Virus genome (UHGV): UHGV-0036730
DNA from: a virus
Reading direction: 5' to 3' (one strand)
Length of the DNA: 18,094 nt
Shown: one piece after another, positions 874 to 13,752 of the stretch
Position numbering within the stretch: the stretch's first letter is position 1
How the letters are laid out: each line of letters begins with the position of its first letter
Notes under the pieces: generated by a model
What the model was told of the DNA's origin: nothing
Databases searched by the model: none
Seen by the model: only the letters and a program-made list of their open reading frames with translations
Position numbers and translations under genes: made by a program

Positions 874-2903
874 TTATGCTGATTCCCGGTTTTCGTTAAC
901 TTTGACTGTGACCGTATCAAGCAGTACCGGATACGTCGCTTTTGCCCCCGTGATATCTGTCAGCGTCAGCGTATCTGCTGTAAAGCCATCATTTGTCCAC
1001 ATCACAAGGTCAAACGCNNNNNNNNNNTAAAGCCATCATTTGTCCACATCACCAGGTCAAACGCAGACTGCTCTGTATCATCAATCACCGGCACCACTTT
1101 TTCGCTGTTATTTCCCGCAAAGCGGAAAACAACTGTATGCCAGTTATGGTCAAATGCCCCAAATGTGCCCAGTTGCGCATTCGACTCCCCCTTGTGGTAC
1201 ATCAGATTCAGATTTGATGCATCCGTCTGAAGGAAGAAGGACGCCAGCATGCTGTTTGCTGTCGCGCCTGACGCCCACTGCGACACCGGCCAGTACAGAC
1301 CAAAGACAAACTGACCGTTAACCAGTTCGACACCCTCCGGGATCTTAAACCGCACGGCAATTTCACCTCCCTTACTGAGAAGATTTTTTGCCTCCTCCAC
1401 CGCAACAGTACGGAACATCTTCCAGGAGGTCAGTTTACCCGGCTGTTTTTCCAGTCGCAGCGCCTTCCTGCCACTGTCATCCGTCACAGTGCCTTTACCA
1501 CCGGACGCATTCCACTGCTGCTCTGTCCATACACCACTGCCACTGTTCGCATCATATCCGGCCACCATTCTTGTTACGGCTTCAGTATGACCGCCTGCAG
1601 AAGTACCTGCACCCTGCTGTTGCGTCGGACCCGCAGAGCCAGACTGTGCATCCCCCGTGGAGGCTGGCGTGGTCGCCAGCGGTGCAGACTGCCCGCTCAG
1701 GAACGGCAGCAAACGCCCGGCTCGCACCAGTATCTCTCCTGCCAGCCGATCTGAAACAATGCCTCTTCGCGCCCAGGAGCTGAAGTGCGTTTTACGATCG
1801 GCTGTCGTCCAGTTACCATTACTGCGTGACGCGGCACCATAGTATCCCGCCGTGATAATGTCCGGATCTTCTGACGGCTCGTTTGTCGGCACATTCGCAC
1901 CATGCTCATCCGTCATCAACGGCACAAAGTGAATATTCTGCGCCGCCTTGCCTTTATAGCCTCCGTAAACCGCCTCATACTGCACTGCATACTTCGCCTT
2001 CCAGTCGTACGTGGTGTCACCGCAAATCCACGGGACGCCGGACGTTGTCCCGCCAATACACTGGTCTGCAATATCTGCCAGGTCTGCACGGTATTTATTT
2101 ACCATGGCAAGAAAAAGTGCATTGTGCTCTGCATGTCTCCCCGAACTGACATCTTTTTCCCCCTGCATCCAGATCACCGACAACAGCACGTTTTTCGGAT
2201 TTTTCTTCAGGGCTGCACGCGTTCTGCTGACCAGGTCACGATACAACGGTTTATCCACCCCCCACAGGGAAGAGCCCGCTGTCGCACCCGACGCCTCATT
2301 AAACGCGCCCTCTGCTCCCGCAGTAAATCCCGAATCGCCACGTCCACACGGGACAAGAAGGATCCCCGCACGGGCAGGCATAAACGGCAGCAGTTTTTTG
2401 GCCACATGCAGGGCATGCCCCACACAGCCATACTGCCCTTTATTGAGGTCTGCTTTCGGGTGATTCAGATTACTCACGTCCTGCACATCATGCAGACAAT
2501 GGTCTGCAGGAATAATGTCGTTATATGCACAGGCCGCACCGCCCGGTGTCACCGTGCTGCGACGCGCCAGTTGCTTAATACGCGGGTCAGGACGATCATA
2601 CGTATCCGGCAGCGGCAGCCCCTCGCCAAAAGACATCGAGTTGGACTGCCCGGCCAGCGCAATGACAAAGTAATATTCCGGTTCGCTGGTGGTGCTGATA
2701 ACAGCGCCACCATCACCCGACGGTTGCACCACCACCGGTGTGGTGACATCACCTTCCGCCGCAATGGCCTGCATCAGGGTATAGGGCGTGATGGCCACCG
2801 GACTGCCAAATGGCTGCCACCCCTCCTTCAGTTTTTGAGTCAGTCGCTCCGCAAGGTCTGACGGCGACGCCGCCCTGACCACGTCATAGTGTTTAAATGC
2901 CAT
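874..2903 (-). CDS. nanS-p: Prophage sialate 9-O-acetylesterase NanS-p (SGNH/sialate O-acetylesterase family); reading frame interrupted by an assembly gap
   Basis: Track ORF 1002..2903: N-terminus MAFKHYDVVRAASPSDLAERLTQKLKEGWQPFGSPV… is the recalled signature of Stx-prophage NanS-p. GGAGG ribosome-binding site 5 nt upstream of the ATG at 2903. The ORF runs into the N-run at 1018..1027; if the duplicated 37-nt flank is collapsed, my manual translation continues in frame (…WTNDGF-TADTLTLTDITGAKATYPVLLDTVTVKVNENRESA) to a TAA at 874..876, so the 3' end at 874 is inferred. Confidence 0.75.
1018..1027. other. Run of 10 N (scaffold/assembly gap) flanked by a near-identical 37-nt duplication (981..1017 vs 1028..1064)
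   Basis: Direct reading: 'taaagccatcatttgtccacatcacaaggtcaaacgc' + 10 N + the same 37-mer with one mismatch (a/c at 1006 vs 1053). Confidence 0.9.
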
Positions 2904-3097
2904 GAATCCTCCCGGTCGGGATAATGTTGTGAGTCAGATGAGGGAACGGGCTGAAGTCCGGAAGTTACAGGACAATGGCAGGAGGAAGACTACAGCCCGC
3001 AATACGAAAAAGGCCGCGCTATTGCGCAGAGTGATTACTGTCGGATATTATTCGCCAGCTGAAATATTACTTCACGTTTTGTTGTTTATTCCTTGCC

Positions 3098-3127
3098 GCC
3101 CGCGTCTCCCAGCGCGGGCTTTTTTTG
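3098..3127 (+). terminator. Rho-independent terminator (plus strand)
   Basis: Stem gcccgcg (3098..3104) / cgcgggc (3113..3119), 8-nt loop, then a T-run 3120..3126. Confidence 0.5.
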
Positions 3128-3128
3128 T

Positions 3129-3157
3129 CCATAAGAAAGCCCCTCCGGAGAGGGGCT
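3129..3157 (-). terminator. Candidate rho-independent terminator (minus strand), back to back with the plus-strand terminator
   Basis: Perfect 8-bp stem agcccctc / gaggggct with cgga tetraloop (3138..3157); on the minus strand it is followed by a U-rich tract (uucuuau). Confidence 0.35.
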
Positions 3158-3475
3158 GGAGAGTGGCGCTATGTGCCATTGCATGGTGCCGGGTGCCTCC
3201 CGGTGAGTTCAGTATCAGCACCTGAACCCGCACAGAAAGGATAAGGGTCGGTGACAAAACACCAGTTGCTGATTGCCCCTCCGCACAGGGGGATTCACCA
3301 TGCCAGTTTCTTTTAACAAACTCCCCGCAAACCAGACAACAGTCAACCGCCTGAATTGTGAGGTATTTAAAAATTTCAACGGGTAACTGATACCCTGCTA
3401 ATCGCCTGATGCTTTCTTTTTCAGCAACGGGGAAGCAACAACCACCACACCCACCAGCCGCCCATTTACCACAAA

Positions 3476-3500
3476 TAAAAAAGCCTTCACTGCGGAAGGC
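3476..3500 (-). terminator. Rho-independent terminator (minus strand) directly after the 95-aa ORF
   Basis: Minus-strand hairpin gccttc-cgcagt-gaaggc followed by uuuuuuauuugu; the stop codon of the 3487..3774 ORF lies in the stem. Confidence 0.5.
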
Positions 3501-3774
3501 GTCTGTAACAACCGAACTGATAGTCTGCCAGACCCGCCATAACCAGCTGGGTCAGTATTAACTGGCAGCGTTCGCGTGAAAGGTAAGTATTCTGCGCAAT
3601 CTCCCCGACTGTCGCCGGGTAGGTGACGCTTAATTCATTAAACACCACTCTGGCGGTTTCTGTCATATCCTGCTGTTTTAGCATGTCTTTTTCCCTTTTC
3701 CGGTTAACGTGACATACCAATAACTCTTGTCTAAAAAGCCAGCAAGCTGAAAGACAGGTATTCACCACCAGCAC
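3487..3774 (-). CDS. Hypothetical protein, 95 aa or shorter, first ORF after tR'
   Basis: Track ORF. Alternative starts at 3684 (MLKQQDMTET…) or 3666 (MTETARV…). It has its own terminator. It occupies the slot where Stx phages carry tRNAs and stxAB. Confidence 0.35.
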   Translation of the reverse strand: MLVVNTCLSACWLFRQELLVCHVNRKREKDMLKQQDMTETARVVFNELSVTYPATVGEIAQNTYLSRERCQLILTQLVMAGLADYQFGCYRRLPQ

Positions 3775-3803
3775 GTTTACTGTACTGATGCGATTTCAGT
3801 CAT

Positions 3804-3830
3804 AAAAAACCCGCCAGGCGGCGGGTTTAA
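3804..3830 (-). terminator. tR'-like rho-independent terminator downstream of Q
   Basis: Minus strand: aaacccgccgcc-tggcgggttt hairpin followed by uuuuuau. About 55 bp downstream of the Q stop, as for lambda tR'. Confidence 0.55.
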
Positions 3831-3885
3831 GTTGTGTGGCGTAGTAACCACTCTTAACATACTGACATACTTTTTGCGGACCGCG
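3831..3885 (-). promoter_or_regulatory. Presumed late promoter pR' / qut region (positional inference)
   Basis: The interval between the Q stop (3886) and the tR'-like terminator is where lambdoid phages carry pR' and the Q-utilisation site. I could not pin -10/-35 hexamers. Confidence 0.3.
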
Positions 3886-4278
3886 CTAATCATTTTTTAC
3901 TTTTTTGGGCAGCCAGTCGTCCATCTCCAGCCTTACACCCAGCATCGACAGACATCCGTCAATAAATCCTTCAGCAATCTGCATCTCAATTCGTATTGCC
4001 TTTTCGCTCTTCTTTCTTGTTCTGGCAATCTGCCTTTTTGATATGCGCAGCAGATAATGAGCTACCAGCAGCGAATACTCGTCCGGTTTTTTCTTCTTCA
4101 GGCGCGTAAGGCAGTTTTCGATGATAAGGCCGTCATCATCGCTGCAGGCCGGGCGAGGTTTAGCGGTGGATGGTAAAAGGCCTTTAAATCCAGCAGCTAT
4201 CGGAGAATAGTCCACCCCGGTGTTACCACTTGCCGCCCATGCGCCCCAGCGTTCAAGCACCTGCTGAATATCACGCAT
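3886..4278 (-). CDS. Antitermination protein Q, phage 21 / QuuD-like family
   Basis: Track ORF 3886..4383 trimmed to the ATG at 4278: [37 protein letters not shown]… matches the recalled QuuD/Q21 N-terminus (MRDIQMVLERWGAWAA…). Overlaps the ninH stop by 8 nt; followed by a tR'-like terminator. Confidence 0.7.
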   Translation of the reverse strand: MRDIQQVLERWGAWAASGNTGVDYSPIAAGFKGLLPSTAKPRPACSDDDGLIIENCLTRLKKKKPDEYSLLVAHYLLRISKRQIARTRKKSEKAIRIEMQIAEGFIDGCLSMLGVRLEMDDWLPKKVKND

Positions 4279-4471
4279 CAGAGTCTTTACCCTTATCCCA
4301 TCCACGATGGACCATAAGGACACCGTTGACGACGGCGTGCCGTTTGCCTTCTTTATCGCCAATATATTTTCTGACCGTGGCACGATTACAGTTCAGTATT
4401 CGGGCCACTTCGGTCTGATTTCCATATGCCTCAACAAGCATGTCAGGAATGATTTTTACGGTGAACGTCAT
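4271..4471 (-). CDS. ninH: NinH
   Basis: [58 protein letters not shown]… is near-identical in pattern to recalled lambda NinH ([36 protein letters not shown]…). Confidence 0.8.
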
Positions 4472-5488: not shown

Positions 5489-6459
5489 CAGGCAGCCTCC
5501 GCTTTGAATTTGCGCGTCAACACATGTTCACGGGCTTCACACCCCTGAATGAGCATGTCGTTAAAATCCGGCAAGTCAGGCCAGCGAATGCTGACCTTCT
5601 CAACGTCATTACGACTCATGAGATTCTTATGCCCACATTTAAAGGCAGCCGCCAGACCTGCGCCGTGCTCATCATTGTCTGCAAAGATAATCAGGTGATT
5701 AACGCCTGGTGGCGCAATAAACTTCTCCATAAAACCGGAGTTCATTGTTGACCACACATTGCAGCGGAAGATTTGACGGCATGAAAGCGCAGTTTCGATA
5801 CCCTCGGCTATCCCCAGAGTGGACGACACCGGATACAGGCGTATTGCCACCGATTTGGCATGCTGCAAACCAGGCAACTCCTGTAGCGCAGTCATTTTTT
5901 TAGCCGCCTCTACATTCGCCTTGCGATCACCATCCAGCAACGTACGATGCAGATAGCAAAGAGAACCTTTGTCATCTGTTGCAATGGCGTAAATTGCCTG
6001 ATATTCGCGCCCGCTGGCGATCTGACGGTCACAGAAACGCACGGATTCGGTCGGTAACTGGAGTATTCCCCTCCCCTGCAGGTACGCCTCACCTGTTGTG
6101 CCCCGCAGACACGGGAGTCCGGCAAACTTATCCATGACCCGCTCCCGTTCTCTGGCAATATCCGTTACAGTGCGTCTGGCATGCCCTCTCTTCCAGGTAT
6201 TACCAACCAGTCGATCGACTTCATCGCACAGATCAACCCAGGGCTTACCCGTGGCAAGTTGCAACAACTTCATCCCGTCCCCGTGACCACAGACACAAAT
6301 CCATGAACCGGAACCATCCTTATCATCACAGCGAAATTTACCTCTGGCACCACATATCGGGCAGGGGCCGCTATAATGTTTCAAGCCAGTAACAGGAGGC
6401 ATGCCGTAATATTCAAAAATTCGCCCCCAATGCCCGGCCGCTGCCTTCTTAGTCTGCAT
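5488..6459 (-). CDS. DNA primase, P4-alpha-like zinc-ribbon + TOPRIM domain protein
   Basis: N-terminal CPICG…CDDKDGSGSWICVCGHGDG zinc-binding motif; C-terminal IIFADNDEHG (TOPRIM DxD-type acidic motif). Overlaps the helicase stop. Confidence 0.65.
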   Translation of the reverse strand: MQTKKAAAGHWGRIFEYYGMPPVTGLKHYSGPCPICGARGKFRCDDKDGSGSWICVCGHGDGMKLLQLATGKPWVDLCDEVDRLVGNTWKRGHARRTVTDIARERERVMDKFAGLPCLRGTTGEAYLQGRGILQLPTESVRFCDRQIASGREYQAIYAIATDDKGSLCYLHRTLLDGDRKANVEAAKKMTALQELPGLQHAKSVAIRLYPVSSTLGIAEGIETALSCRQIFRCNVWSTMNSGFMEKFIAPPGVNHLIIFADNDEHGAGLAAAFKCGHKNLMSRNDVEKVSIRWPDLPDFNDMLIQGCEAREHVLTRKFKAEAA

Positions 6460-7969
6460 GCTGGCCTCCTGTCATGGCTTTCTTGCGCCCTTTGGCATAG
6501 GCAATGGTCTTTGACTTGATGAAGTTGTACACTTCAACTGAGGTTTGCAGCGGCGCATTACTGAAGCCTTTAGGCCACACACCGAACTTCTCCTTGTAGG
6601 TATGAGCGCACCATCCGTCACTCAGGGGTTTACCCGTCGCGTTGCGGTAATTCTGATAACCCTTGATCTCACTCCACCAACGCTGTTTTTCCTCACGGGT
6701 GTATTCGCGTTTCCCTTTGTTGACGCGTGAAAGCTTACGATCGCGATCTGTCGCCACGTCATCACCACCAAGTGGGCGAAATCCACATTTGGGACACATG
6801 TGTACACCAGCAGGCTTCATGAAGTGGCATTTGGGGCATTCTCTGGGAAGTTTTTCAGCTTTAACCTCGCCACCGCCAGCAGACGCTTTCATTCCGTCAT
6901 TTTTTCCCGGAAGTTCGTCATACTCGATATCCTCGGGGAAGCCCAGCCGATGAACCGTACCGGAATGGTCGAAAATCAATGCGCGTTTTTTACCAGACGC
7001 AGTACGTAACGCTCTCCCGATGCACTGCAACCAGCGGATTTCTGATTTGGTCGGACGGGCGTAGATCAGGCAGCGAACATCGCTGTCAAATCCCGCAACC
7101 AGTACGCCGACGTTGACAATTATTTTGGTCGCACCATCTTCAAAACGGCGAATGATATCCTGCCGTTCATCATGGGGGGTATCTGCCGTCATCACCTCTG
7201 CGCCAATGCCAGACTGTAAAAACTCACGGGTAACAAAGTTCGCATGAGCCACGTTCACGCAGAAGCAGATCGTCGGTAAATCCTCGCCATTCTCAAGCCA
7301 GTTGCTAACGATATCGCCAACCAGATCCGAACTCCCCATGATGGATGCGAGCTGTTCCTCGTTGTAATCCCGTCCAAATACGGTGTTACTGGTTTTTACG
7401 CCAGTCAGATCAGGCATTGAGGGGGCAAAAAACTCGTAATCGCTCAGATCACCACGCTGAATAAGTTCACGAATCGTTGTAGGCTTGATCAGGCATTCGT
7501 AGTACTTCCCCATCCAGGCTGCGAATGGGGTGCCGGAAAGTCCAAGAACCCTGATGTCTCTGTCCCGGATAACCTCAAGTAACGCACGACGCTTCATGTG
7601 TGCTTCATCGATGATCAGCAGATCGATGTTGTCAGGAAACTCACGACGGATCAGCGTGTCGGCACTGGCAATCTGAATCAGTCGTGACGGGTCATAGTTA
7701 GGGTGATCACGCCATACAAAACTGATTTCTTCCCACGGTAAACCGTATTCGGTGAAACGTTCCGCTGTCTGGTTCAGCAGGATGGTGTACGGACAGACAA
7801 ACATCACCCGCATACCACGTTCAACCATTCCGGCGGTGACGAATGCTGCAAGACCAGTTTTGCCAGAGCCAGTGGGTGCGTACATCAAGTACGTGCGATG
7901 CTGTTTCCACTGGTGCCGCAGCTGGTTTAAACCGCGCTCCTGAGCAAAGTTTGGGATTATTTTCAGCAT
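6449..7969 (-). CDS. Superfamily-2 DEAD/DEAH-box replicative helicase with C-terminal zinc ribbon
   Basis: Walker A APTGSGKT; DEAH box LLIIDEAHM; C-terminal CPKCHF…CPKCGF. 506 aa, operonic with the primase. Confidence 0.7.
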   Translation of the reverse strand: MLKIIPNFAQERGLNQLRHQWKQHRTYLMYAPTGSGKTGLAAFVTAGMVERGMRVMFVCPYTILLNQTAERFTEYGLPWEEISFVWRDHPNYDPSRLIQIASADTLIRREFPDNIDLLIIDEAHMKRRALLEVIRDRDIRVLGLSGTPFAAWMGKYYECLIKPTTIRELIQRGDLSDYEFFAPSMPDLTGVKTSNTVFGRDYNEEQLASIMGSSDLVGDIVSNWLENGEDLPTICFCVNVAHANFVTREFLQSGIGAEVMTADTPHDERQDIIRRFEDGATKIIVNVGVLVAGFDSDVRCLIYARPTKSEIRWLQCIGRALRTASGKKRALIFDHSGTVHRLGFPEDIEYDELPGKNDGMKASAGGGEVKAEKLPRECPKCHFMKPAGVHMCPKCGFRPLGGDDVATDRDRKLSRVNKGKREYTREEKQRWWSEIKGYQNYRNATGKPLSDGWCAHTYKEKFGVWPKGFSNAPLQTSVEVYNFIKSKTIAYAKGRKKAMTGGQHAD

Positions 7970-8882: not shown

Positions 8883-9086
8883 TTAATCATCGCCTCTTAC
8901 GAACGCAGGGAACGGTCGAACCTCTTCCGCCTCAACTCTGCCGTCATCAAAGGTTTTGACGTAAATTTCACGTCCGACAAGAAGCGCTTTACTGATCGCG
9001 CTCTGCGCCACACCAAAGTCCTTAGCGGCTTTCTTCTGACCGAACCTGTATACGTAATCAGCCAGGGTCTCTTTTTTCATCGCCAT
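8883..9086 (-). CDS. cro: Cro repressor (lambda Cro family)
   Basis: Track ORF 8883..9122 trimmed to the ATG at 9086, which has an AAGGAG ribosome-binding site with 7-nt spacer. [60 protein letters not shown] parallels recalled lambda Cro (…[36 protein letters not shown]…AEEVKPFP). Divergent from cI. Confidence 0.8.
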
Positions 9087-9181
9087 AACTGACTCCTTCA
9101 AAATGCCCATATCATTACGCACAGTTATTAAAATGTCAACACCGCAGATATTTCATTACATATAACCAAAGGTGATATGGT
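9087..9181. promoter_or_regulatory. cI-cro divergent promoter/operator region (OR-like)
   Basis: 95-bp intergenic region between divergent cro and cI. Minus-strand TTGACA (plus tgtcaa 9134..9139) is suitably placed as a -35 for a PR-like promoter. Inverted ccatatca / tgatatgg elements (9107..9114 and 9173..9180) are candidate operator half-sites. Operators not defined with certainty. Confidence 0.4.
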
Positions 9182-9895
9182 ATGAACATGAAAAAGAAAC
9201 CGTTAACCCCTGAGCAACTGGAAGACGCCAAGCGTCTGAAAAGTATTTTTAACGCTAAAAAGAAAGAGTTAGGCCTGTCGCAGGAATCATTAGCCTATGA
9301 ATTAGGTGTTACCCAAAGCGCTGTTAATCAGCTAATGGCTGGCATCAACGCCATAAATGCCAGCCACGCAGCACAGCTTGCTAAGATACTGAATGTAAAG
9401 GTCGGAGATTTCAGTCCCAGCCTGGCAAAATCTATTGCAGAAATGGCGCTCGCAATTGAAGAGCCATTAACTCGTGTCCCCGCTTACGAATATCCGTTAC
9501 TCTCCTGCGTACAAGCTGGCGCATTCTCAATGGATGATATTTCGTACACCGCAAAAGATGCGATTAAATGGATCTCCACCACCACAAAAGCCAGTGACAG
9601 GTCGTTCTGGCTGGAGGTCAAGGGGCATTCAATGACCGCACCGCAGGGTGGTAAACCCAGCTTCCCTGAAGGTATGCTGATACTCGTTGACCCTGAACGG
9701 GAAATCGAGGATGGCGATTTTTGCGTGGCCCGAATGAACGGCGATGAATTTACCTTCAAACGATTCATTCGTGAGAGCGGTAAAGCGTACCTGGAGCCGC
9801 TCAACCCACGATTCGACATGATTGAGTGTAACGAAAACTGCCAGTTTGTCGGAAAGGTCATCAAATCGCAGTGGAATGATGATACTTTTGATTGA
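9182..9895 (+). CDS. cI: CI repressor, lambda CI family (HTH DNA-binding domain + S24 LexA-like autocleavage domain)
   Basis: 237 aa; collinear with recalled lambda CI along the whole length (KKKPLT.EQLEDA.RLK…LGLSQES…FSP……EYEYP…VQAG.FS…[33 protein letters not shown]……GDFC.AR..GDEFTFK…). Confidence 0.9.
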
Positions 9896-9991
9896 GCTCA
9901 CAGAGCGATATTAATAACCTTGCCGGGAGATGCTTGGGAAGCGATTTTCTGGCATTATTATCTGAGTTGCCCACAACCTATAGAGTCTTAC

Positions 9992-10153
9992 ATGAAAAAA
10001 TCATTTGCTGTATTGTTCGTTTTGTTGTCACTGGTAGCTTCGACTCAATCATTCGCTGGTCGTTGCCAACACGACAATGATACCGCTGCTGACGGCTCTC
10101 GTTGTGGTGGTCGTTCTGCTGATTCTCGTCCTGGCGGTGGTGGTATTCGCTAA
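9992..10153 (+). CDS. Small exported peptide (53 aa, predicted signal peptide, Gly/Arg-rich mature part with 2 Cys)
   Basis: ATG at 9992: MKKSFAVLFVLLSLVASTQSFA | GRCQHDNDTAADGSRCGGRSADSRPGGGGIR. Stop 10151..10153 is followed at once by a hairpin. An overlapping alternative-frame ORF (10077..10316) makes this call uncertain. Confidence 0.3.
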   Translation: MKKSFAVLFVLLSLVASTQSFAGRCQHDNDTAADGSRCGGRSADSRPGGGGIR

Positions 10154-10157
10154 AAAC

Positions 10158-10185
10158 AAGGCCGCTTTCCCGGCCTTTATTTCAA
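10158..10185 (+). terminator. Candidate rho-independent terminator
   Basis: Stem aaggccg / cggcctt with 6-nt loop (10158..10177) followed by a T-rich tract. Confidence 0.4.
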
Positions 10186-10332
10186 TACGTTCAGACAGAA
10201 TTTTTGGCCTGTTGTTAACTAGTAACCTGAAGAGACGTTTGGGTGATGTTTGGGTGATTTTAGTTGTGATTAACGAAAACTATGGTGCAACATCTTATAG
10301 TAAATTGTTAATATAACAAGGTATTGTATCAA

Positions 10333-11235
10333 ATGAGCCAAAATCTTGATTCAACACTAGAAACATACATCTCTTGGCAGTTAGAGCAATTTAAGGATAA
10401 ATTTTTCCCAAACTGTGACGTCATTGCGTACTACGGTGGCATCTTTCCATGGTCAAAAGAAGTTTACCAGCCAAAACTTGAAGCTATTGGTGAGATGGCT
10501 AACAGTCGTACCAATAAATTTCTTGTTATTATACTCAATACAAACGGTGGTTCTGTTGAGTCTGTAGAAAAAATGGTAGAAATTACAAGGCATTTCTACC
10601 AAGAGGTATATTTTATCATTCCAGACATGGCTATGTCGGCAGGTACAATATGGTGCATGTCTGGAGATAAAATTTACATGGACTATGCTTCTTCATTAGG
10701 ACCTATTGATCCTCAAGTGCAATCGTCGGACGGTAAATGGGTTCCCGCTTTGGGATACCTTGATAAAGTTGAAGAAATGATTAATAAATCCAGAGAAGGA
10801 ACCATTACCCAAGCTGAACTGATGATGCTTAGTCAGTTAGATCTGGCGCACTTGCGGAGATATGAGCAAGCCAGAGAACTATCAATAGACTTGCTTAAGA
10901 AATGGCTTGTGGAGTATAAATTTAGAGAGTGGACAGTTCATCAGGGTAACACAAAACGAGGAAAGCTAGTTACCAAGAGGGAAAAGGAAGCGAGGGCTAA
11001 AATGATCGCTACCGCTCTTAGTGACAACGGAAAGTGGCATTCTCACGGAAGAACGATAGGAATAAACACTCTTATCAATGATTTAAGGATAAAAGTAGAA
11101 GACTTTACATACGATAAAGATTTTAGCATGGCGTTAAAAAATATACATAACGTCATTAATGAATACATGTATAAAACAAATCGACAGGTTCTTGTTCTGT
11201 CTTCTTTCCCTTTTCCAGAACAAAGTGAGTCATAA
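10333..11235 (+). CDS. ClpP/crotonase-fold serine peptidase, S49 (SppA) / SDH-like family, no signal peptide
   Basis: Track ORF 10324..11235 (TTG) trimmed to the ATG at 10333. ILNTNGGSVESVEKMVEIT aligns with the ClpP INSPGGVITAGMSIYDTM region; IIPDMAMSAGTIWCMSGDKIYMD carries the A-x-S-x-G catalytic-serine motif (ClpP GQAASMGA / SppA AASGGY). The ClpP His position is IDPQ here, so a Ser-Lys (S49-like) mechanism is inferred. Lies in a locally AT-rich block. Confidence 0.6.
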   Translation: MSQNLDSTLETYISWQLEQFKDKFFPNCDVIAYYGGIFPWSKEVYQPKLEAIGEMANSRTNKFLVIILNTNGGSVESVEKMVEITRHFYQEVYFIIPDMAMSAGTIWCMSGDKIYMDYASSLGPIDPQVQSSDGKWVPALGYLDKVEEMINKSREGTITQAELMMLSQLDLAHLRRYEQARELSIDLLKKWLVEYKFREWTVHQGNTKRGKLVTKREKEARAKMIATALSDNGKWHSHGRTIGINTLINDLRIKVEDFTYDKDFSMALKNIHNVINEYMYKTNRQVLVLSSFPFPEQSES

Positions 11236-11406
11236 ATGAACAAAGACAAATCCCTGACACAACAAGTGGAAGAAATACTTAGCAAGCAAAAAGTTAGCGA
11301 GCAAGGAAAAATGATTCAATCATTAAAGAACAGGGGCTTGATCAACAAGCCTGTTTTTACTTTGGCTTATGGACCAGATATTACAACCTGCCAAATGCAC
11401 CAATAA
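11236..11406 (+). CDS. Small protein (56 aa) translationally coupled to the peptidase
   Basis: ATG at 11236 directly abuts the peptidase stop (TAA-ATG). MNKDKSLTQQVEEILSKQKVSEQGKMIQSLKNRGLINKPVFTLAYGPDITTCQMHQ, stop 11404..11406, then a strong terminator. Below the 60-aa cut-off of the ORF track. Confidence 0.4.
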   Translation: MNKDKSLTQQVEEILSKQKVSEQGKMIQSLKNRGLINKPVFTLAYGPDITTCQMHQ

Positions 11407-11437
11407 CAAAACCCGGCCTTGGTGCCGGGTTTTGTTT
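11405..11437. terminator. Bidirectional rho-independent terminator between convergent operons
   Basis: acccggc-cttggt-gccgggt hairpin (11411..11430) flanked by aaaa / tttgttt, so it is U-rich after the stem on both strands. Sits between the peptidase cassette (+) and hicAB (-). Confidence 0.6.
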
Positions 11438-11522: not shown

Positions 11523-11867
11523 TTAAGCCCCTGTGTGATGGTTGACTTCTTTTTCCAGCGCCTTATTAACAAAGGCGTTCAGTGATAAATCTTCTTCCAT
11601 CGCCATTTCTGCTACCCGACGATGCAGTTCTGGATCAAGCCTGACGTTAAACACACCTTTAAACGGGGTATCAGGCTCCTTTCCATCCTCCACACAAGAC
11701 TGTAAATACAGCTCAACCGATGTCTTAAACTCCTGTTCCAGTTCAGCTAATGTAGAAGCCTCATAAGTTACCAGGTCTCGAATAAACGCCAGTTTTCCGT
11801 ACAGGATATTATTTTCAAAATCTGGTTCTACTGTACCTAAATACCCTTTATATTTTAGATGCTTCAT
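11523..11867 (-). CDS. hicB: HicB-family antitoxin (N-terminal HicB fold + C-terminal ribbon-helix-helix)
   Basis: 114 aa; YKGYLGTVEPDFENNILYGKL…EASTLAELEQEFKTSVELYL… then GVFNVRLDPELHRRVAEMAMEEDLSLNAFVNKALEKEV, the characteristic HicB RHH tail. ATGA overlap with the upstream hicA. Confidence 0.75.
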   Translation of the reverse strand: MKHLKYKGYLGTVEPDFENNILYGKLAFIRDLVTYEASTLAELEQEFKTSVELYLQSCVEDGKEPDTPFKGVFNVRLDPELHRRVAEMAMEEDLSLNAFVNKALEKEVNHHTGA

Positions 11868-12112
11868 AATACCCCAGCCTCTTTCAGATTCTGTTTAATC
11901 GCTTTCAGCGTTCCACCTTTAATATAACTTTCTGGATGTGGGCGATGCATTAATATGGTGTGGTTGATTTCAGCATTGAAAAACCGCACTCTTGAGCCCT
12001 GCATTTCCTTTTTGACATCTCCCAGAGAGGAAAACAAAACGACCAGCTCATCCCATTCAAACGTTTTTTTACTGTTTAAAAACTTTTCCAGTAGCTTATC
12101 TGCTTTCCCCAT
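11864..12112 (-). CDS. hicA: HicA-family toxin (mRNA interferase)
   Basis: Track ORF 11864..12118 (GTG) trimmed to the ATG at 12112. …LLEKFLNSKKTFEWDELVVLFSSLG…HTILMHRPHPESYIKGGTLKAIKQNLKEAGVL follows the HicA/YcfA pattern. Upstream of and overlapping hicB. Confidence 0.7.
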   Translation of the reverse strand: MGKADKLLEKFLNSKKTFEWDELVVLFSSLGDVKKEMQGSRVRFFNAEINHTILMHRPHPESYIKGGTLKAIKQNLKEAGVL

Positions 12113-12268
12113 ACCCACATAATCTCATCTTCGCTACATTGCAACTAATTATAGTTACAGACAGTGTTTTTGTCAAAAGCCACCAAGCCCGCTGGGTTCT
12201 CTTTGACTGTTCGCTGCTTTTCCTGGTGTTATCCGGGGGCTTTTCCCTCACGCCAAATCTCACACAGA

Positions 12269-12294: not shown

Positions 12295-12917
12295 TGACCG
12301 CACTCCGCTAACCGCCCCCTTGAAAAATAAATCACTTTAAAAATCAGTTAAGTAATATTTTTTTGACCCCAATAACCACCAACGGTATTTACACAAAAAT
12401 CACCGCAAGTTATATTTATTTCAAGCCAGAAACATCGCGCCCTTACACAGGGCTACATAAATCAGTCGTACGGCGCGACTTAACCCGCCGCAAAATGCTC
12501 TTTAACAATCTGGAGCTTTACAGCGTCAATGACCTGTTTAGACCCCTACACGTAAACGTGCTGTATCATCGGGTGCGATCCGGTCGATGAGAGAGTATCC
12601 CCGCGCGAGAGCGAGAACGGCGTGAGAACGGGCAACACTGGCAGGAAGTTGGCGCTGACCAATACAGGGAATGTTTTGGGGTGTGGTGAAGGGTTCATGG
12701 ACGGGAATATGTCGCACGTAAAGCGGCGAGGCCCGAGGGACTATTGCTGAAGATAAGTAGGCCGAATCGGGTCGAAATGGGTCTCCCACCTGCCACATCG
12801 CCAAAGCGTTTCTGAGAAAGGACGGTATTGACTGCGTGTGATGTCGGGGCTATATTTGGCGAACACCTCATAAAACGGGTGTCGGGATTGCTACCCCGCT
12901 GACAATCGAGGCGATAC

Positions 12918-12939
12918 AGACGCGCCAGCGTCTTTTTTT
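12918..12939 (+). terminator. Rho-independent terminator upstream of rha (tL-like position)
   Basis: Stem agacgc / gcgtct with gcca loop (12918..12933) followed by a T-run (12933..12939). Confidence 0.45.
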
Positions 12940-13104
12940 GTATCGACATACACGCACATCTTATCAATGGTGGGCTGTATGGGGCCGACTTCGGTCGGGC
13001 TGGTTCCCTTGATTGCCAGTTGTAGCAACCCTGTACAGTCCACCGCCAGCGAGCTTGCTACCTCCAGCGGTGGTTATCAATCACCAATCAAGGAGGCTGC
13101 CATT

Positions 13105-13752
13105 ATGGCTACTATCCCAGTCCTTTCTCAACCTGAAATCACCATTTCCAATGGTCGCGTTATCACAACGTCTATTGCTATTGCTGAATTTTTTGACAAG
13201 CGGCACGACGACGTTTTAAAAAAAATCCGATTGATGGATTGTTCTACGGAATTTAACGCCCGCAATTTTTCGGACGTTACCTACACCGACGCCAAAGGCG
13301 AACAACGCCCAATGTACCAAATCACCAAAAACGGATTCGTTTTCCTGGTGATGGGGTTCACTGGCAAAAAAGCCGCCGCTTTCAAAGAAGCCTACATTGC
13401 TGAATTCGATCGCATGGAAAAACAACTATGGGAACAGAAACAACTGGCCCTGTCTTCTCCTGCGATGAATATCAATTTTCCTTTATCGTGGTTTTCAGAG
13501 CATCACCCCTACGCCACGATGAACTATGTTGATCGCAAGGTTATCAGCCTTGATGCTTCCGTGCTCTTCGATATGCCAAGCCCAACTATGCGCATCCTCA
13601 ACGAGCTACACAGCAAAGGCTATAACGTCGATGCGGCTGTCGCCGAATTTAACGCCTTCAAGCATCTGACGGAAGAAATGCGCCGTCAATTGCTGGACAT
13701 TTCCCGCACATCGGAAAAGTCTTCCCGCTTTGGTTTCAACGTAAATCTTTAA
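13105..13752 (+). CDS. rha: Rha-family phage regulatory protein
   Basis: Track ORF 12967..13752 trimmed to the ATG at 13105, which has an AGGAGG ribosome-binding site at 13091..13096 (8-nt spacer). The N-terminus (…SNGRVITTSIAIAEFFDKRHDDVLKKIR…) fits the Rha domain as I recall it. Confidence 0.65.
   Translation: MATIPVLSQPEITISNGRVITTSIAIAEFFDKRHDDVLKKIRLMDCSTEFNARNFSDVTYTDAKGEQRPMYQITKNGFVFLVMGFTGKKAAAFKEAYIAEFDRMEKQLWEQKQLALSSPAMNINFPLSWFSEHHPYATMNYVDRKVISLDASVLFDMPSPTMRILNELHSKGYNVDAAVAEFNAFKHLTEEMRRQLLDISRTSEKSSRFGFNVNL

Follow-up and report, generated by a model that had tools for sequence, protein, structure and literature searches.

In the virus genome UHGV-0036730, a stretch of 18,094 nucleotides (hereafter the window) comprises the early genes and the immunity region of a lambda-like Escherichia coli prophage, and close to its cI-type repressor gene lie a serine peptidase gene (gene 1) and a 56-residue partner gene (gene 2). 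Comparative sequence evidence indicates that this region is an autonomous, horizontally mobile two-gene module, consisting of an intact SDH-type protease of the ClpP fold and a small helical-hairpin protein that diverges together with it. We suggest, at a probability of roughly 0.4, that the module is expressed by the lysogen and acts in phage exclusion or abortive infection, the protease being restrained or directed by the partner; a defence or toxin-antitoxin reading of the pair is a reasonable hypothesis. Should such a function apply, the pair would be classed as a prophage-borne conflict module of protease and partner.

The stop codon of gene 1 is abutted by the start codon of gene 2 (TAA-ATG, with the ATG at 11236), and the start of gene 1 is identical in the RefSeq annotation of a sibling prophage. 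An initial annotation of the window had proposed a two-gene cassette; its coordinates were upheld, and the comparative survey bears out that the small open reading frame (ORF) is conserved together with the peptidase. Eighty loci with protease homologues of 47-67% identity were retrieved from the Proteobacteria, Bacteroidota, Acidobacteriota, Gemmatimonadota, Elusimicrobia, Omnitrophota, Spirochaetota and other phyla, and an ORF of 55-90 aa immediately follows the protease in all 80 (five apparent exceptions were settled by hand). A profile hidden Markov model of the partner detects the partner ORF downstream in 95 of 98 protease loci; the gap between the two genes has a median of 10 nt, and in 75 of the 95 the genes overlap or are separated by no more than 20 nt. 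The three exceptions are two Haemophilus/Neisseria loci and a distant homologue from a Gordonia phage. At the former two (L014, Haemophilus sp.; L015, Neisseria subflava) a profile-negative ORF of 62 aa (MSYTQQDLEYLL...SYDIATPQEV...) occupies the partner position and may stand for a partner that has been replaced or has diverged strongly. The pairwise identities of the two genes are correlated (r = 0.80, a value reached by none of 2000 Mantel permutations), their means being 57% (protease) and 22% (partner); the protease holds about 50% identity across phyla, in a family of at least 434 species representatives. Clustering of all flanking ORFs revealed no third conserved gene and no upstream regulator on either side. 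Taken together, these comparisons indicate that the protease has a genuine and ancient partner in the small ORF, and that the pair has been inherited together across bacterial phyla.

For the partner, two short helices are predicted, behind which lies a conserved linear motif (KPVFTLAYGPDITT in the window protein); in most phyla this motif reads K-P-x-[YF]-x-L-[PA]-x-x-D-T-I-G, the full consensus being G-[LIV]-[ILV]-x-K-P-x-[Y 84%/F 16%]-x-[L/F/I]-[P 71%/A 27%]-x-x-D-T-I-G-[KR]. Only this motif of about 12 residues is strongly conserved; an AlphaFold2 model places the helices at residues 7-17 and 22-32 and leaves the motif region unstructured (predicted local distance difference test, pLDDT, 66). 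A word-based search with the 56-aa protein alone found near-identical enterobacterial proteins only, and a profile search of 1.84 billion proteins yielded 466 cluster representatives, nearly all of them standalone proteins of 57-99 aa, none of which carries a name or a Pfam domain. A chance reading frame, considered as an explanation for the small ORF, was rejected on these 466 cluster representatives and on the conservation at the protein level across phyla. Among phage protein families the partner matches phrog_28875 (5e-31), whose function is unknown, and in Pfam a sub-threshold ArgR-N match (E 0.006) appears in the E. coli variants only. A profile search of the PDB gave matches to designer pentatricopeptide repeat (PPR) proteins with no single stretch significant; a PPR-like nature was discarded, the matches being probably an artefact, because the helix-turn 'F..Y.EM...G[IL]' resembles the PPR consensus and its score is summed over the repeats. 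Between two E. coli alleles of the pair, the ratio of nonsynonymous to synonymous substitution rates (dN/dS) is 0.21 for the partner and 0.04 for the protease, indicating that both genes are under purifying selection.

The gene 1 protein matches the Pfam family PF01972 (SDH_protease) over residues 62-199 with 44.2 bits against a cut-off of 31.3, and this family is present in all 120 homologues among the matches listed. Other Pfam matches were sub-threshold, namely NfeD1b_N (40 bits) and CLP_protease, with PF00574 (ClpP, MEROPS S14) at 18.3 bits and a cut-off of 20.2; the SppA model TIGR00706 likewise gave 20.4 bits against 155. RefSeq already names the protein an SDH family Clp fold serine proteinase, a name based on the fold only, and in PHROGs it belongs to phrog_11747, of unknown function. 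The NCBIfam equivalog NF047768 (Clp_like_SDH) is matched with 57 bits and over residues 60-149 only, and the distance from its cut-off of 250 bits leads us to regard the gene 1 protease as a distinct subfamily. The assignment as a ClpP/S49-class peptidase with an intact serine motif is thus sound, PF01972 scoring above threshold and AMSAG being invariant. Its description as cytoplasmic is a matter of inspection, by which no hydrophobic N-terminus, transmembrane stretch or other hydrophobic anchor is visible in the sequence.

Eight residues are invariant in 82 unique homologues: Ser102, Asp126, Asp170, Lys196, His236, Ser237, His238 and Arg240. Ser102 lies in the motif AMSAG and Asp126 in GPIDPQ, both of them invariant, and Lys145, the most plausible residue for a dyad like that of SppA, is kept in 76 of the 82. 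This pattern fits a Ser-Asp-His enzyme, with Ser102, Asp126 and His236 or His238 as candidate catalytic residues, that would be active in all members; the order agrees in 82 of 82 sequences with that of PF01972, in which we take the catalytic Ser, Asp and His to follow one another in this sequence according to the Pfam description. In the Ser-His-Asp triad of ClpP the His stands about 25 residues behind the Ser. The earlier proposal that the His position of ClpP is replaced (IDPQ) agrees with the sequence and with an alignment by eye, both of which put Asp126 there, while the alignment of gene 1 to E. coli ClpP by hhalign (2.5% probability) is too weak to fix the equivalence of His and Asp. 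A sequence search with the gene 1 protein detected no solved structure. An AlphaFold2 model built with 24 homologues (pLDDT 89.8, the WHSHGR loop being the least confident part of the folded region) adopts the ClpP/crotonase fold, and Foldseek ranks SppA first (E 3e-6), followed by ClpP and the 1510-N protease, with TM-scores to SppA structures of 0.4-0.55.

An ordinary role for this fold in phages and their hosts, as a head-maturation or scaffold protease or as a housekeeping ClpP/SppA protease next to a chance small ORF, finds its only echo in weak matches to head-maturation families (phrog_53, 5e-7; NF045542, 24.9 bits against a cut-off of 120). These scores are far sub-threshold, the gene is situated among the immunity genes, with cI on one side and the early-left recombination genes on the other, and not in the head module, most of the family occurs outside phages and the small ORF is conserved. 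We consider this explanation refuted, and the placement in a capsid-maturation or housekeeping family that would have overturned the initial annotation did not materialise.

The proposed horizontal acquisition of an AT-rich block is supported by base composition. The block 10186-11437 has a G+C content of 37.9% compared with 49.6% in the remaining window (sliding-window minimum 0.355), and in 98% of 90 loci the module is lower in G+C than its flanks, with a mean difference of 9 points; this consistency across loci argues for repeated horizontal acquisition. The segment 9900-11500 is 99.9% identical to prophages of five complete E. coli genomes, one of them the Stx1a prophage of strain 2015C-3121. 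The pair is rare, being found in 17 of 5426 complete E. coli genomes (0.3%), where two alleles of 92% nucleotide identity adjoin different cI genes, and in seven of 72,556 plasmids, with the E. coli-type pair in a single one. Most family members are located outside prophages, and in Shewanella and most other phyla the pair forms a solitary AT-rich islet among housekeeping genes.

These observations bear on a physiological role unrelated to phages, in which the protease would act on, or be regulated by, a dedicated partner much as NfeD does with stomatin, and the prophage would carry the pair as a lysogenic-conversion or fitness gene. The partner is no stomatin and lacks a membrane segment, the distribution is very patchy, and the pair recurs at a repressor-proximal moron slot. 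Given this patchiness, the foreign composition shared across loci and the moron slot, an accessory conflict gene fits better, and we regard a physiological function as unlikely.

The position beside the repressor is shared by prophages of E. coli, Klebsiella aerogenes, the Enterobacter cloacae complex, Pasteurella multocida, Gallibacterium and 'Martelella alba', in which a gap of 70-175 nt separates the pair from a co-oriented repressor gene upstream, and the pair is divergent from cro and lies ahead of kil/gam/recT or N, the repressors themselves being of different types. The rexAB-like position proposed initially thus recurs in several unrelated lambdoid prophages, and we conclude that lambdoid prophages of the Enterobacterales and Pasteurellaceae have recruited the module to the repressor-adjacent moron slot. 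The more specific statement that the pair lies directly downstream of cI holds for sibling and related prophages and fails in the window, where an ORF of 59 aa and a hairpin intervene. This ORF matches phrog_14503 ('membrane associated protein', 1e-37) and is a 'transmembrane anchored protein' in RefSeq; the segment 9974-10177 is missing from most related prophages that carry the pair. In a related prophage (L002), no terminator separates cI from the pair, and an equivalent hairpin directly follows the pair. The interval between cI and N has been described as a mosaic hotspot and defence location that holds rexAB and bstA (PMC8585504). The cI allele of L002 is present in some 776 E. coli genomes, and no more than a dozen of them have the pair; others hold in this slot a two-gene set, an insertion sequence (IS) element, a 345-aa hypothetical protein or nothing. 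In E. coli ExPEC XM (L101, 4055-5361), which has the same cI allele, the slot is occupied by genes for a 185-aa protein and a DUF1828 protein with weak matches to the PADLOC candidate PDC-M24 (E 5e-4 and 5e-10), and sieB lies nearby.

Such a position could also point to a regulatory device of the prophage, with the protease cleaving a repressor, anti-repressor or CII-like factor, its own or that of a competitor, and thereby tuning lysogeny and induction. A repressor gene always adjoins the pair in gammaproteobacterial prophages, including the repressors of L083-L086 that lack the S24 autocleavage domain. Against this stand the unrelated repressor types that accompany the pair and the location of most family members outside prophages; moreover, since siblings with the identical cI allele lack the pair, it is dispensable for the immunity circuit. 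We therefore hold a regulatory role to be very unlikely.

The unit is closed by the strong bidirectional terminator that had been predicted from its letters: the perfect stem of 13 bp has a folding energy of -21.2 kcal/mol on one strand and of -22.3 kcal/mol on the other (z about -4.5), and none of 200 shuffled sequences folds equally well. The same terminator also serves the convergent hicBA operon, a toxin-antitoxin system, and together with the 59-aa ORF and the pair this operon makes three separate morons in the interval from cI to PL. The hicBA promoter (12176-12148) is a perfect match to the sigma-70 consensus (12/12, TTGACA-17-TATAAT).

Decay products of the module were found in three E. 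coli genomes (strain 48, NZ_CP166879, locus L097; H18; H20), whose collinear prophages have lost the equivalent of window positions 9930-11222, and with it both the signal-peptide ORF and the entire protease gene, and retain an intact partner ORF with its ribosome-binding site. At L097 (3927-4184) the orphan partner has 56 aa with one substitution, next to a clean loss of 1.3 kb comprising the protease gene. Conversely, no protease of the subfamily without a downstream small ORF occurs among the loci examined. Three metagenomic proteins fuse an N-terminal protease fragment in frame to the partner, internal deletions having removed the catalytic part. Rosetta-stone fusions of protease and partner were also considered, and rejected: the long matches are all remnants of internal deletions, not functional fusions.

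A partner that outlives the deletion of its protease, with the reverse never seen, is what one would expect of an addiction module, in which the protease would be a toxin and the partner a labile antitoxin, stabilising the prophage or islet and not acting against phages. The compact, tightly coupled operon, its mobility and AT-richness, and the adjoining hicAB are in keeping with this, as is the example of IetAS, where a serine protease serves as a plasmid-stabilising toxin. However, the remnant asymmetry is statistically meaningless, and no DNA-binding antitoxin domain was found in the partner beyond the sub-threshold ArgR-N match. Addiction modules are typically rich on plasmids, and the few plasmid records of this pair, only one of E. 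coli type, do not follow that distribution. Pure addiction thus seems quite unlikely to us.

Our preferred reading remains the exclusion or abortive-infection module outlined at the outset, for which we propose the following course. The pair would be expressed in the lysogen, through read-through from the repressor promoter or from a promoter of its own, and the partner, by way of its [YF]-x-L-[PA] motif, would bind the protease and either restrain it like a pseudo-substrate or act as its specificity subunit. Superinfection would then release or redirect the protease, leading to cleavage of a phage or host protein, and this cleavage would block the incoming phage by exclusion or abortive infection, as in the cases of rexAB, bstA and IetAS. 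In favour of this reading we count the reality of the pair, its conserved active site, its mobility and repressor-adjacent position, the unstructured motif as a putative docking peptide, the decay products that keep the partner, the hicAB neighbour and the precedent of IetAS. A more far-reaching version would make the pair the founding example of a cross-phylum class of protease immunity, in which a micro-protein keeps the protease latent by plugging its substrate groove with [YF]-x-L-P-x-x-D-T-I-G, until infection displaces or destroys the plug and sets the protease free; we consider this doubtful, and leaning towards improbable.

Several observations weigh against an anti-phage function. Binding of the partner to the protease through the motif is purely inferred. 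Plasmids and sequenced phage isolates hardly ever contain the pair: a nucleotide search of the isolates did not find it, and a protein search retrieved an SDH-type protease in only two of them, Gordonia phage BeeGee (gene 31, L099) and Shewanella phage MuM16-1 (p15, L100). These two proteases are distant (26-29% identity) and stand in a moron-like position, followed by a hypothetical protein of 185-212 aa in place of the small partner. Most genes that directly adjoin the pair outside gammaproteobacterial prophages are housekeeping genes, and the classical defence-island signal is weak, since just two of 137 nearest neighbours resemble the DrmD/BrxH helicases of DISARM and BREX (a further two resemble phage repressors). 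In the window, the hairpin at 10158-10177 parts cI from the pair, and a consensus scan of the leader (10186-10332) found no convincing sigma-70 site. A model of a dangerous protease and a protective partner predicts remnants that keep the partner, yet the excess observed (4 vs 0) falls short of significance, given that the protease gene offers deletions a target five times as large. Finally, PADLOC-DB v2.0.0 (5027 models, which presumably include IetA and IetS) returned no family at E up to 0.1 for either protein, a result that also agrees with the initial statement that the pairing matches no named anti-phage system.

If the pair does protect lysogens, it would add a new type of effector, a ClpP-fold Ser-Asp-His protease, to the prophage-borne defences, and with the co-evolving micro-protein a new control logic. 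It would likewise give a function to a widespread protease family, so far with a fold-based name only, for which at least 434 species representatives and 466 partner clusters were counted. The pair lies in the immunity region of close relatives of Shiga-toxin phages from pathogenic E. coli, and superinfection exclusion shapes the co-residence of toxin phages. Even if its role is not defence, a protease strictly coupled to a partner of 56 aa whose linear motif is sharply delimited would be a tractable model for the control of self-compartmentalising proteases by small proteins.

Table 1. Features of the window around the protease/partner pair
Feature	Position	Strand	Remarks
Q	3889-4383	minus	
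ninG		minus	
Primase/helicase replication module	5491-7969	minus	
cro	8883-9122	minus	divergent from cI
cI-type repressor	9182-9895	plus	HTH_3 and Peptidase_S24 (Pfam); co-oriented with the protease/partner pair
59-aa signal-peptide moron ORF	9974-10153	plus	between cI and the pair; Gly/Arg-rich tail
Hairpin	10158-10177		between cI and the pair; weak, -10.8 kcal/mol
AT-rich leader	10186-10332	plus	AAGG about 12 nt before the gene 1 ATG
Gene 1, SDH-type ClpP-fold serine peptidase	10333-11235	plus	300 aa; ATG 10333, TAA 11233-11235
Gene 2, partner protein	11236-11406	plus	56 aa
Bidirectional intrinsic terminator	11405-11436	both	13-bp perfect stem 11405-11417/11424-11436, 6-nt loop, A/T runs
hicB (113 aa) / hicA (83 aa) toxin-antitoxin operon	11523-12118	minus	converges on the terminator after the pair
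Rha/Ash, RecT and YqaJ exonuclease genes	right of the pair	plus	

Further elements of the window (Table 1) concern its regulation and origin. The operator-like pattern CACCGCA-N(2-5)-TATTT occurs only at 9140-9153, in the intergenic region of cro and cI (OR), and at 12401-12417, adjoining a PL-like promoter (TTGACC-17-TATTTA, about 12366-12394). These motifs suggest that the pair and hicAB belong to the immunity region proper, and any estimate of their occurrence by chance is optimistic, because the choice of the pattern followed inspection of the sequence. Further into the early-left region, Rfam identifies two directly adjoining RNAs at 12863-13050, isrK (61.8 bits) and a C4 antisense RNA (77.4 bits), overlapping the start of the Rha/Ash-family ORF at 12967-13752; the unit looks like an antirepressor control of the c4-ant type of P1/P7 or of the isrK-anrP type. 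Downstream of Q, the interval 1005-4383 contains the small RNA STnc100 (3127-3332, 143 bits), followed by a NanS-p-like esterase (DUF1737, SASA and DUF6645), and neither stx genes nor tRNAs are present. The window appears to derive from an stx-negative relative, since the sibling prophage of 2015C-3121 has stx1AB at this place.

Our literature search found nothing on the pair and no described function for any member of the SDH-type protease family; recent defence catalogues and screens were outside this search, and prior naming is possible. To our knowledge, a ClpP-fold effector switched by a pseudo-substrate micro-protein has not been described in bacterial defence. With the SDH-type proteinases (PF01972) the gene 1 protease shares the ClpP/crotonase fold and the invariant Ser-Asp-His order, and it differs from them by the lack of a membrane segment and by being always accompanied by a small partner gene. 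SppA is membrane-anchored and uses a Ser-Lys dyad, whereas in the gene 1 protease Lys145 is not invariant and His and Asp are conserved instead. The two are nevertheless alike in the context of the serine motif, SppA (S49; PDB 3rst, 4kwb) being the best structural match in Foldseek. Going by the title of entry 4kwb, SppA binds its own C-terminal peptide in the active site. Such a groove occupied by a peptide offers a structural precedent for a peptide-occupied resting state. The NfeD/1510-N protease cleaves a stomatin encoded in its own operon; the present pair differs in having a soluble partner of 56 aa in place of stomatin and a protease without a membrane domain.

The closest parallels in position are lambda rexAB and bstA of the Salmonella phage BTP1, which occupy the same slot in the same orientation, downstream of cI and before the early-left operon, and are closed by a terminator. 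As judged from this position they are expressed in the lysogen, and they bear no relationship to the pair in sequence or fold; the matches in Pfam, PHROG and PADLOC revealed no homology to RexA or RexB, comprising protease or unknown-function families only. RexB is a membrane protein and BstA a DNA-associated protein, unlike the protease predicted as effector of the pair. In organisation, the pair comes nearest to IetAS, in which a subtilisin-like serine protease toxin and an AAA ATPase antitoxin provide both plasmid stabilisation and anti-phage activity (PMC13069673). The protease fold and the partner of IetAS are unrelated to those described here, and the likeness lies in the two-gene design, a serine protease effector together with a restraining partner, which for the present pair is predicted.

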